Both the position numbers and the translations under genes were made by a program. From the NCBI GenBank assembly GCA_963707025.1, contig CAVPOM010000006.1:224001-288000 (forward strand): a DNA stretch of 64,000 nucleotides. The letters run 5' to 3'. The notes below the pieces were generated by a model. The model had not been told where the DNA came from, made no database searches, and worked only from the letters and a program-made list of their open reading frames with translations. The DNA is from an uncultured Verrucomicrobiae bacterium. GTDB lineage: Bacteria > Verrucomicrobiota > Verrucomicrobiia > Limisphaerales > Palsa-1400. Shown piece after piece: positions 3,632-39,082 of the stretch (positions are counted from its first letter, which is position 1; each line of letters opens with the position of its first letter).

Positions 3632-3660
3632 CGCGGGGGAATGGAGGGATGGAGTGATGG

Positions 3661-3750
3661 AAATGCAGAATGCAGAATGCAGAATGCAGAATGAAAAATG
3701 CAGAATGGAAAATGCAGAATTCCGAATCCGTGGAATCCGTGAAATCCGTG
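3661..3750 (+). repeat. Short tandem repeats: (AATGCAG)n heptamers followed by (AATCCGTG[G/A])n
   Basis: aatgcagaatgcagaatgcagaatgcagaatg... then gaatccgtggaatccgtgaaatccgtgg; same heptamer recurs at 52939-52970. Confidence 0.9.
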
Positions 3751-3801
3751 GTAAAAATCCTCGCGATGCGGAGCGCATCTGCCCGATGCAGTGGCGTCGC
3801 A

Positions 3802-4070
3802 GCGCAAATTTCTGCGCGAGGGAGCTTACCGCGCCCGGAACATTTTACGGCCAAGCTGTTTTGCAGCGTCGAGTTTTGGATTGCCTGCCCGCCGTAGCTC
3901 GCAGAGCGAAGGAGGGAAGGTCTGCCGAAATTGATCGGCTTTTGTGTGAGATCGCCGCACCAGCAATTCCGAATTCCGGGCTTGATCCTTTCACCCTCTC
4001 ACTTTCGTTCATAAGCGTTTGCAGTGCAATCTGTTGCAGTTGAGATAGGACTAAACTATAGGGTGACGCC
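3802..4070 (+). repeat. Copy A of three-copy gene-end relic (RKFL..FTAKLFCxVEFW.E.LPKLI) with a 33-nt REP insertion at 3884-3916
   Basis: Aligns by eye with 4896-5052 (+) and 6705-6852 (-). Confidence 0.85.
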
Positions 4071-4082
4071 TTTGCCAGCCGC

Positions 4083-4111
4083 TTGATTCTTCGCCCGGCA
4101 CAATGTAGTTT
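4083..4111 (+). promoter_or_regulatory. Sigma70-type promoter of TA module 1, probably leaderless
   Basis: TTGATT-17 nt-TAGTTT, 6 nt before ATG 4118, no Shine-Dalgarno. Confidence 0.55.
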
Positions 4112-4117
4112 TCCCGG

Positions 4118-4318
4118 ATGACCGCTGTCGCCAACAAGCTGCTGGACGATTTCAAGAAGCTCGCCCCGCACGAGCAATTGATCGTCCGCGAAAGAGTGAT
4201 CTCCCTCACCGAAGTCCGCCAGCGCGAGGCCTTGAACCGCCTGCGGGGCTCCAGCGCCGGGAAGGGGCTGCTGGACAAACTGCTCGCCGACCGGGCCAGG
4301 GAGCGCGCCCGTGGCTGA
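4118..4318 (+). CDS. Putative antitoxin (VapB-like position)
   Basis: 66 aa, overlaps the start of the downstream PIN-domain gene. Confidence 0.7.
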   Translation: MTAVANKLLDDFKKLAPHEQLIVRERVISLTEVRQREALNRLRGSSAGKGLLDKLLADRARERARG

Positions 4319-4739
4319 CGCGATCGTCTTGGACACTTCGGCCATTTTGACCCTGACCGGCAACGAACCCGGGGCCGACGAAGTGCAGACGTATCTGGCG
4401 GAGGCCATCGCAGGGCGCATTCAGTTGCACGGCTCGTTCGCCAGCCTGACCGAGGTGGAATACATCACCGCGCAGGAGGAGGGAGCGGAGGCCGCCCGCC
4501 AGCGGCTGGCTGACCTCAACGCGATGCCCGTCCAATGGCTGCACTCGGACGCCGCCCTGTGCCACGAGGCGGCGAGGCTCAAGGCAGCGCACAAAATTTC
4601 ATTCGCCGACGCCTTTATCGCGGCCACCGCCAGCCGGTTCGACGCCACGCTTGTGCATAAAGACCCGGAGTTCCACCCGCTCGCTGCCGAGGTGAAGCAG
4701 CACTTGCTCCCGCCAAAGTCCGGTGCCCCAAGCTCGTGA
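4311..4739 (+). CDS. vapC: PIN-domain toxin, VapC family
   Basis: IVLDTSAIL, SLTEV, ISFADAFIAATA, LVHKDPEF acidic PIN motifs. Confidence 0.9.
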   Translation: MADAIVLDTSAILTLTGNEPGADEVQTYLAEAIAGRIQLHGSFASLTEVEYITAQEEGAEAARQRLADLNAMPVQWLHSDAALCHEAARLKAAHKISFADAFIAATASRFDATLVHKDPEFHPLAAEVKQHLLPPKSGAPSS

Positions 4740-4793
4740 AGGCCGGTTCATCTGGTATGGACGGCTCTCTCCGCGCTGTCTGTTCCCATTTCG

Positions 4794-4916
4794 CCTGTCC
4801 ACCGTCCTGTCCGCCGTCCTGTCCACCGTCCTGTCCACCGTAGGCCCTGCGAAGGTGGAAGGCCCGGCGAAGGTGGAAGGCCGTAAGAAGGCGGAAGCTC
4901 GCAGAGCGAAGGAGGG
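4794..4916 (+). repeat. Four-deep nested REP-like micro-element (4 left halves then 4 right halves)
   Basis: 4x CCTGTCCRCCGT (4794, 4806, 4818, 4830) then 4x AG..GAAGGNGG (4842, 4860, 4878, 4896). Confidence 0.9.
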
Positions 4917-5052
4917 AACGTCTGCCGAAATTGATCGGGCTTTGTGAGAGTACCGCAATTGGAACTCCGAATTCTGGGCTTGATCCAATTAACACTAAGC
5001 ACTTGCAGTCCAACTGGTTACTATTTACAGTGGGCAAAAGTATGGGTTACCC
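4917..5052 (+). repeat. Copy B of three-copy relic (3' part)
   Basis: aacgtctgccgaaattgatcgg...ccgaattctgggcttgatcc...taagcacttgcagtccaa...tatgggttacccc parallels 3917-4070. Confidence 0.8.
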
Positions 5053-5695: not shown

Positions 5696-6703
5696 TAGAG
5701 CATTTCCATAAATCATGTAGCGTAGCGGGCGTTTAAAAAGAAGCCCCGGCAATCGGCGGTGGAGATGGCTTCAAAGGCAATCTTCGCCGCTTGGAGCAGT
5801 TCCTTGGCGGTTCGCGGCGCGAGACCTCGCATAATTTGTTTGACCTTGCTCCACATATTTTCGATGGGATTAAAGTCTGGCGAATAGGGCGGCAGATACA
5901 GCAGCGTTGCCCCGGCCTCTTCGATGGCTTGGCGGACTCCGGTCACCTTATGCGTGGCCAAGTTGTCCATGATGACCAAGTTACCCTTGCGCAACTCCAC
6001 CACCAGCCCCTGCTGGATCCAGGCCAAAAACATTTCCCCGTCCATGGCCCCCTCAAAGAGGCAGGGGGCCGCAGGCCCGGCCAGACGAATGGCGCAGACC
6101 AGGGTGGTGGTCTGATAATGTCCCTGCGGGACGTGGGCCGCCAGTCTTCGGCCCACGGGTGACCGCCCGCAAAAACGGGTCATCTTGGTGTTGGCCCCGC
6201 TTTCATCCACGAAGACCAGTCGGGCAGGTGGGTCACTTGCCAGACGCTCATGCCAATGGGCCCGCTTTTCGGCCACGTCCGGACGGTTCTGCTCGGCGGC
6301 GCAGAGCGTTTTTTTTATAGCTCAACCCCAGTTTGCGCAGCCACAAATCCACAGTGGAGGTCCCGAAAGGGCGGTCCAGACGCGCCCCCAACTCGGCCAA
6401 CGTCGCGTCGGGCTGGGCCGCCACCAGCTTTTGCAGGCGAGCCTGGCGTCCGGCGTTCAGCAGCGTTTTGCGCCCGCACAAATGGGTTTGCGGCTGGAGC
6501 GTGCCGCGCTCTTGGAACTGCTGCCGGACCCGGCGCACCGCCGCCACGCAAAAGCCGAAAAAGTCCGCGATCTCGCGGGTGCTTTTGCCTTGTTCATAGA
6601 GTTGCAGGATGCGCTCGCGCGCAGACACGGGTATCGCTCGCATGGCTCAAGCCTGCCAGCCCTCTCGCCCCAGTCAAGCTATATCATTTATGGAAACGCT
6701 CTA
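5696..6703 (-). mobile_element. IS630-family insertion sequence
   Basis: Inverted ends ctagagcatttccataaatcatgtag vs ctagagcgtttccataaatgatatag (23/26), TA at 5696-5697 and 6702-6703. Confidence 0.95.
5713..6643 (-). CDS. IS630 transposase in two ORFs (HTH 6643-6248; DDE 6276-5713), probable programmed frameshift
   Basis: VFVDESG, IMDNLATHK, LPPYSPDFNPIE; A8 tract at 6309-6316 at the SYKK junction. Confidence 0.93.
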
Positions 6704-6704
6704 G

Positions 6705-6852
6705 ATCACTGGGTCAAGTGTTACGTTTTGATTCAATTCACGCTGAGGCTCGATCAATTTCGGCAGACGTTCCAACCAAAACTCGACGTTGCAAAACAGC
6801 TTGGCGGTGAAATCCTCCGACCACAGTTGGCTCTTGCGCAAAAATTTCCGCT
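6705..6852 (-). repeat. Copy C (empty-site copy) of three-copy relic
   Basis: Reads RKFLRKSQLWSEDFTAKLFCNVEFWLERLPKLIE with no REP insertion. Confidence 0.85.
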
Positions 6853-6956
6853 TCTCCGGCGGCGGGTTTGCCCAACGGCGACGCCGCATGGGACGCCGCA
6901 GTTGCACGGCCTGGCTGGCGCTCACTTCCCGATCTTGCCGCTTCCGGAGCTCTTGT

Positions 6957-7238
6957 TCAATAAACCTCGTCGTGTGTTCCAACGCCTTCAAGCAGAATGG
7001 CTTCTTGTCCGCTATGTTTGACAAATTGAAAGACGATGCGGAGGTCATACCCGGCGCTACAGGCCCACGATCCGGCCAGCTTCCCCTTTAACTTGTGAGA
7101 TTTGAGCTGCGGATGAAAGGCATCGGCCGCAAGCAACTCCAGCGTCAATTGCAATTCCGGCCCGAGTCGAGGATGTTTTTGAACGAAGCGCCGTGCGGAA
7201 CGCACAAAGGCCTTGGAGGGAAGGAGCAGGCGTTTCAA
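6957..7238 (-). CDS. RelE/YafQ-family mRNA interferase toxin
   Basis: SKAFVRSARRF, HPQLKSHKLKGKLAGSWACS, DLRIVF, GTHDEVY; TTG start overlaps antitoxin stop (TTGA). Confidence 0.9.
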   Translation of the reverse strand: MKRLLLPSKAFVRSARRFVQKHPRLGPELQLTLELLAADAFHPQLKSHKLKGKLAGSWACSAGYDLRIVFQFVKHSGQEAILLEGVGTHDEVY

Positions 7239-7441
7239 GCAAGGATGCGTTTGACGATCTGTTTCGGCGTGGCAGGACGGCAACAGCCTCCTTCAAATTC
7301 CCGGCGCGCCGATTTCACCGCTTGGAGCAGAGTTTCGCGGCGGCGTTCTGCGAGACGATGTTGCAAGACCTCGACCAGGGATTCCTGTTCTTCGACGCCC
7401 AATTCGTCAGCCGAATCCAACACCTGTGCAAATGTCTTCAT
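7235..7441 (-). CDS. Putative antitoxin
   Basis: 68 aa, coupled upstream of the RelE-type toxin. Confidence 0.75.
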   Translation of the reverse strand: MKTFAQVLDSADELGVEEQESLVEVLQHRLAERRRETLLQAVKSARREFEGGCCRPATPKQIVKRILA

Positions 7442-7448
7442 GGCTGTG

Positions 7449-7477
7449 ATAATATGCCTGTTCATCAGAGAATGCAA
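7449..7477 (-). promoter_or_regulatory. Sigma70-type promoter of TA module 2, probably leaderless
   Basis: TTGCAT-17 nt-TATTAT, 7 nt before ATG 7441. Confidence 0.6.
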
Positions 7478-38947: not shown

Positions 38948-39082
38948 TGCGAACGTAGAAAGTTGAGCCACCGCCGACTCGCGGCGTGAATCCCGACTTG
39001 TCGGGAAACAAAAGCGCCATCCGCCTTCGCTCCGCAGCTACGGTCGGACAGGACGGCGGTTGGCTCCGGAGACTGGTGAGGT
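38948..39082 (-). other. attC4 containing a 33-nt REP insertion (39020-39052)
   Basis: ACCTCAC..ggagccaaccgcc..ggcggtggctca..GTTCGCA; arms match attC1. Confidence 0.85.

Follow-up and report, generated by a model that had tools for sequence, protein, structure and literature searches.

A stretch of 64,000 nucleotides (nt) from an uncultured Verrucomicrobiae bacterium (assembly GCA_963707025.1, contig CAVPOM010000006.1, positions 224,001 to 288,000), referred to here as the window, contains at positions 4794 to 4916 an array of half-hairpins that very probably arose by insertion of a small hairpin element into itself. Comparison of copies within and between genomes showed, at the level of sequence, a discrete unit with exact ends, self-insertion in the same orientation without duplication of the target, and a link to one clade of GIY-YIG nucleases. 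The full explanation, namely, a non-autonomous, self-inserting hairpin with this nuclease clade as the likely enzyme, was given a probability of roughly 0.6. The question of what moves very small (20- to 40-nt) bacterial repeats becomes testable here with oligonucleotides and one protein, since the ends of the element are known to the base, it has a defined target within itself, its sites occur both empty and filled, and there is a candidate enzyme of 80 amino acids (aa). New at this locus is that one family combines nesting within itself with exact empty sites and with a candidate for the enzyme.

As a first-pass annotation of the window had described, the array consists of four left halves followed by four right halves; the left halves are 12 nt long and the right halves 18, 18, 18, and 21 nt. 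The parts of the array and of the repeat that hosts it are as follows.

4794 to 4805, + strand: L1, the outermost left half, probably derived from an array at the 3′ end of a VapBC module, with R4 not its original partner
4806 to 4817: L2, left half
4818 to 4829: L3, left half
4830 to 4841: L4, left half
4842 to 4859: R1, right half
4860 to 4877: R2, right half
4878 to 4895: R3, right half
4806 to 4895, + strand: three nested 30-nt elements (L2/R3, L3/R2, and L4/R1), each at CCGT^AG of the next one out
4830 to 4859, + strand: innermost intact element, with a 4-nt tag (CCTG), a 6-bp stem, a GTA/GAA internal loop, and a short inner arm
4896 to 4916, + strand: R4, with the same sequence as 3896 to 3916, being the right half of the 33-nt subtype that resides in the host repeat
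4917 to 4990, + strand: right arm of the host repeat
3884 to 3916, + strand: single 33-nt element (depth 1) within the host repeat
3800 to 3990, + strand: host repeat, elsewhere empty or filled (left arm about 3800 to 3883; right arm 3917 to 3990)
6690 to 6870, − strand: empty copy of the host repeat, with the junction at 6772/6771

Pairing from the inside out yields the matched stems previously reported, TCCACC/GGTGGA for L4/R1 and L3/R2 and TCCGCC/GGCGGA for L2/R3. The lone covarying pair, L2/R3, would be expected by chance about 1 time in 3 by our own arithmetic and is weak alone. The outermost pair had been equated with the single element at 3884 to 3916; this was correct for R4, which has the identical right half, and incorrect for L1, which differs from the left half of that element at 2 of 12 positions and has only 4 of its 6 stem positions paired with R4. 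R4 and the arm that follows it repeat 3896 to 3990, while L1 and its flank are unlike the left arm of the host, and the left flank of L1 has no second occurrence in the genome. In another genome (G002), the orthologous VapBC pair is present without the upstream host repeat and has its own element array downstream. The L1/R4 pair is probably chimeric, and the window array would represent an array of the VapBC module, contributing L1, fused to a host array that already held three insertions.

Copies of the unit were collected from the whole genome; each begins with a 4-nt tag, and between the two strands of its 6-bp outer stem lie a GTA/GAA internal loop and an inner arm that is short. With filters set by hand after the data had been seen, 319 raw matches were reduced to 76 high-confidence copies, as against 2 in the reversed genome, indicating that the family is not due to chance. 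The tag was CCTG in 52 copies, CTTG in 7, and another sequence in 17; 67 copies were 30 nt long, within a family range of 30 to 33 nt. Multiplication of left halves was coupled to that of right halves (49 single copies, 24 with both halves multiplied, the window array among them, 3 with the left only, and 0 with the right only; Fisher P = 8 × 10−17). When halves were paired in nested order, the center pair of the stem was Watson-Crick in 34 of 55 pairs (within-array null of 27.9; P = 0.007) compared to 25 in parallel order. For other genomes, arrays were chosen on left halves only; this pattern occurred at at least 116 loci, a few of the matches being due to chance, and the 117 matches were reduced to 105 arrays after removal of 3 that were incomplete and 9 in which no right half could be parsed. 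Of the 105, 74 had at least two right halves, the center pair was Watson-Crick in 100 of 163 (null of 89.3; P = 0.001), and nested order was favored in 14 of 15 informative arrays. In 11 of 15 arrays, single elements from the same host were closer to the outermost right half than to the innermost one, with 3 arrays showing the reverse and 1 a tie. Branched nests, in which a whole element lies within the inner loop of another, were found at loci L123 and L401. Inverted nesting was also sought with a loose pattern; none of the 27 matches proved on inspection to be a complete inverted element.

These counts also bear on whether the left and right halves could have expanded independently by slippage, with the stems kept matched by template-switch correction or selection. 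Some unbalanced arrays, among them L6R2 and L5R3, have left halves that are nearly identical, as slippage would generate, and adjacent left halves were identical in 9 of 40 cases (1 of 36 for right halves). Set against these are the lack of any right-only expansion among the 76 copies, the branched nests, and the inner units, which differ in subtype from the resident outer unit. Nor was the array more stable than shuffled sequences, the whole 131-nt array folding no better on either strand (z = −0.8). Slippage as the main source of the arrays was thus largely refuted and, as a complete account, is very improbable; it remains as a secondary process. A function of the array as a giant hairpin was rejected on the basis of the same stability test. 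The single element folded modestly better than shuffled sequences on one strand only (z = −1.95 versus +0.27). The tag strand was the more stable one in 58% of the 76 copies here, a weak bias, and in 90% of 108 copies elsewhere; the folding energy model, as we understand it, ignores sheared G·A pairs.

Further evidence for insertion came from empty sites. For 23 of the 76 elements a paralogous site was present in the genome, and 20 of these junctions had an offset of 0, with no base gained or lost; 2 were off by one and 1 was a self-match. Among the sites occupied are loops of GTAG-type REPs, tandem repeats of 7-mers and 9-mers, and dispersed repeats of greater length. The target preference on the 3′ side is loose, ^[A/T]G, with A or T at +1 in 36 and G at +2 in 31 of 50 distinct junctions. 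A fixed 4- to 5-nt target 5′ of the element, as is typical of IS200/IS605, was not found, the 5′ flank being unconserved. The junction within nests, GT^AG, sits inside the internal loop of the unit itself and fits this preference, which explains why copies nest. The host repeat of the window locus provides a graded series: it is empty in five copies in this genome (one at 6771 of the window), at depth 1 in four (3884, contig C18, and two relatives), at depth 2 in genome G003, and filled further in an L3R4 array on contig C9 and the L4R4 array of the window. The inner units of nested arrays are of a subtype other than that of the resident outer unit. Half counts, stem pairing, empty sites, and the host series all agree with the original proposal that the element inserted into itself, one copy after another, at CCGT^AG and left the target unduplicated. 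The nests also preserve the order of insertion.

The first-pass annotation had attributed this movement to an HUH/Y1 enzyme, of the RAYT or IS200 type, acting in trans. Action in trans was borne out. Two features are in keeping with an HUH enzyme: the target is not duplicated (offset 0 for 20 of the 23 elements with an empty site), as in IS200/IS605, and the foot of the hairpin bears a 4-nt tag. In addition, 10 Y1 loci are present in the genome, and several targets are loops of GTAG-type REPs. The enzyme assignment was not upheld: in a search reaching 600 nt to one side and 900 nt to the other, no copy of the motif accompanied any of the 10 Y1_Tnp loci, so that no Y1 or RAYT gene flanked by it was found in this genome, and no open reading frame (ORF) with an HUH motif occurred in 195 regions around elements. 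C^T was seen at only 6 of the 50 junctions, and the hairpin foot carries CYTG (CCTG in 52 of 76) rather than the GTAG or GTGG expected for REP/RAYT. As described in the literature (PMC6006769, PMC3116915, and PMC3733652), REP/REPIN-RAYT and IS200/IS605 systems resemble the present element in having a 4-nt tag and imperfect hairpin, movement in trans, and in-frame copies in genes, and differ from it in that here the tag is CYTG, the hairpin is single rather than a doublet, and there is no link to a Y1 gene. The supplements of PMC6006769 contained no match to the element. Movement by an HUH/Y1 transposase was considered quite unlikely.

A different candidate emerged at locus L072, where an 80-aa GIY-YIG gene comes after a tRNA-like gene, copies of the element, and a nested array, in that order. 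All-against-all clustering of ORFs from the 195 regions detected no conserved neighbor gene of nested arrays, the GIY-YIG-like ORF being found at L072 only. The best 80 of 454 metagenome homologs of the L072 protein were then used as a locus set. A same-strand hairpin was present within 300 nt of the gene at 55 of the 80 loci, or in 42 of the 58 clusters formed at 90% identity, and on both sides of it at 16 loci, compared to 3 on the opposite strand, 1 in reversed sequence, and 0 of 61 in distant flanks. A tRNA or tmRNA was called at 59 of the 80 loci. In a sample of 26 loci from the order, upstream DNA was sufficient at 24; a tRNA or tmRNA precedes the gene at 19 of these, and an element on the same strand is present at 18; a full opposite-strand copy, readable at 13 loci, ends in TGG, and where a tRNA or tmRNA is present this TGG overlaps its CCA end. 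Across genomes, the motif was found in 16 of 23 with a clade gene versus 28 of 127 without, and five or more copies were found in 6 of 23 versus 2 of 127. All of these counts were tallied by hand with four weak matches taken as negative, kin are not independent, and the 16 of 23 is inflated by the hairpin copy of the cassette itself. Nested arrays adjoin the gene at L072, L246, L251, and L253. At L245, the cassette adjoins a tRNA-SeC call.

The clade proteins are ∼80 aa long and match PF01541. A structure model had a predicted local distance difference test (pLDDT) score of 96.6, with HIGLE, Slx1, and UPF0213 as the best-matching folds. In a phylogenetic tree that compared 26 hairpin-linked proteins, gathered by similarity to one query, with four proteins located beside SRM-type repeats, the 26 formed a clade (support of 98/93) apart from these four. 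The clade is probably the cognate enzyme of the element, judging from these associations. Alternatively, the hairpin may be mobile through another enzyme, the GIY-YIG cassette being a favored landing site or a homing-type tRNA parasite. The element does enter many kinds of repeats and the local nuclease copy looks degenerate, as would be expected in that case. The position and strand of the hairpin relative to the gene are, however, fixed across the 58 protein clusters, and the inverted copy ends on the tRNA CCA, a configuration that looks like a cognate site rather than a random landing. We therefore regard the landing-site alternative as rather unlikely and favor the GIY-YIG clade as the enzyme that acts on the hairpin.

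Several observations weigh against the explanation by a self-inserting hairpin and its GIY-YIG nuclease. The nuclease is a candidate mover by association, its role in movement being inferred; GIY-YIG enzymes are hydrolases, and we know of no joining step for them. In the only clade copy of this genome, on contig C4, the first motif Tyr is replaced by Cys, such that the nuclease may be dead; a hairpin is still present upstream, and the cassette is decayed and without a tRNA. The clade was not found in the element-rich genomes G077 (77% complete) and G170 (84% complete), and the hairpins next to the nuclease could in part have been carried along at tRNA hotspots. With regard to nesting, only 5 of 9 informative arrays in this genome favor it (1 is parallel and 3 are ties), only 46 of the 105 arrays elsewhere have as many left as right halves, genomes and arrays are not statistically independent, and the window and C9 arrays may share ancestry. 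Reads were considered from eight sequencing runs, each with a share of 0.09 or less; contigs from four of them did not span 4794 to 4916. An empty host junction was visible in those contigs, which are DNA of other organisms.

Among known systems, the Ssn/SRM pair offers the closest parallel. The main text of Chenal et al. 2025 (PMC11893778) describes cleavage of single-stranded DNA by SsnA, on one strand only and a few bases 5′ of a hairpin; this cleavage was shown, with mobility only hypothesized, and the words "nested," "tRNA," and "target site" are absent from that text. Both systems have a small GIY-YIG gene of a single domain with a strand-specific hairpin of its own at its flank, and copies of this hairpin are also scattered through the genome. 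The cut of SsnA lies where, in the present element, the 4-nt tag ends. The systems differ in that the published SRM pattern was matched by none of the 76 elements and that the tested clade lies apart from the four SRM-adjacent proteins and is parked at tRNA or tmRNA ends. Since the SRM, REP, and RAYT tests failed, the element was not assigned to those families. Rickettsia palindromic elements likewise make frame-preserving insertions in proteins; the present element is far shorter (10 to 11 codons), crosses phyla, and nests within itself. The small dispersed repeats (SDR) of Nostoc, attributed to Elhai et al. 2008, are reportedly very small hairpin repeats with precise insertion. At the level of description, the likeness extends to the very small hairpin unit and to precise insertion; here other phyla are involved, no HIP1 target was seen, and there is a candidate enzyme. 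The element works like the Ssn/SRM pair and behaves like the very small repeats of cyanobacteria. SDR5 inserts precisely in HIP1, according to PMC4390886. A literature search, with Elhai et al. 2008 and the supplements of the Ssn paper outside its range, found no description of this hairpin family.

These comparisons suggest a mechanism in which a non-autonomous 30- to 33-nt DNA hairpin with a CYTG tag inserts whole, without duplication or deletion. In the window, three copies would have entered a resident 33-nt element one by one, and the outer left half would later have been exchanged with the array of the neighboring VapBC module. The likely enzyme would be the ∼80-aa stand-alone GIY-YIG clade, located at tRNA or tmRNA 3′ ends behind one or two hairpin copies. 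By analogy with SsnA, the nuclease may bind the hairpin as single-stranded DNA and nick just 5′ of it, which would set the end of the tag, and host repair (a guess on our part) or ligation might seal the piece into a nick at structured DNA. These nick-and-seal details are tentative, at somewhat less than even odds. It is doubtful, though conceivable, that a stand-alone Slx1-like GIY-YIG nuclease mobilizes a 30-nt single-stranded hairpin without a DDE, HUH, serine, or tyrosine transposase. If the nuclease is the mover, Ssn-type nucleases would be extended from cleavage to mobility; this mode of duplication-free mobility would be shared by bacterial phyla and able to write 10-residue inserts into proteins, and other orphan very small mobile repeats might be explained likewise.

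The single-element pattern matched 45 of 151 genomes of the order. Among the 80 matches listed with titles, the left-half pattern was found in Verrucomicrobiota, Kiritimatiellia, Acidobacteriota, Planctomycetota, and Patescibacteria. Element length was a multiple of three in 70 of 76 copies here and 93 of 108 elsewhere, the first reading frame almost always lacked a stop, and long ORFs contain arrays in frame. One such array lies in the linker of a kinase whose homologs in the same genome have a shorter linker. Such in-frame copies would explain odd low-complexity peptides in proteins of uncultured bacteria. The Ser/Thr kinase genes at L139 and L028 each have several in-frame insertions.

Other features of the window are as follows.

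4118 to 4318, + strand: 66-aa ORF without a Pfam match, a putative antitoxin from its position
4311 to 4739, + strand: PIN-domain (VapC-like) gene, whose G002 ortholog also has an element array after it
39020 to 39052, − strand: further copy of the element

A direct repeat of ∼95 nt, made up of a right half and the host arm, lies on either side of the VapBC-like pair (within 3896 to 4990), which suggests entry or rearrangement of the module via the hairpin array. Near the empty host repeat are an IS630-like transposase, in two ORFs by eye (5713 to 6643, − strand), and another toxin-antitoxin pair, in which the toxin is YafQ-like (6957 to 7477, − strand). Tandem arrays of the 7-mer AATGCAG and the 9-mer AATCCGTG(G/A) follow mutS at 3647 to 3752; at other places in the genome the element has often inserted into repeats of these types. 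At G000 C5:202681-205696 (− strand), a repeat unit occurs three times with an element at the same site in each, resembling a cassette array. A multicopy reverse-transcriptase ORF, group II intron-like, lies 120 to 180 nt from several element-bearing repeats (for example, G000 C10:198243, C3:11362, C3:115884, and C7:375398), probably reflecting a shared target repeat. Finally, two near-identical GIY-YIG genes of another clade (L011 and L012; G000 C11:124736-124951 and C9:13251-13466) are each followed by a tRNA-like sequence with a different short palindrome.
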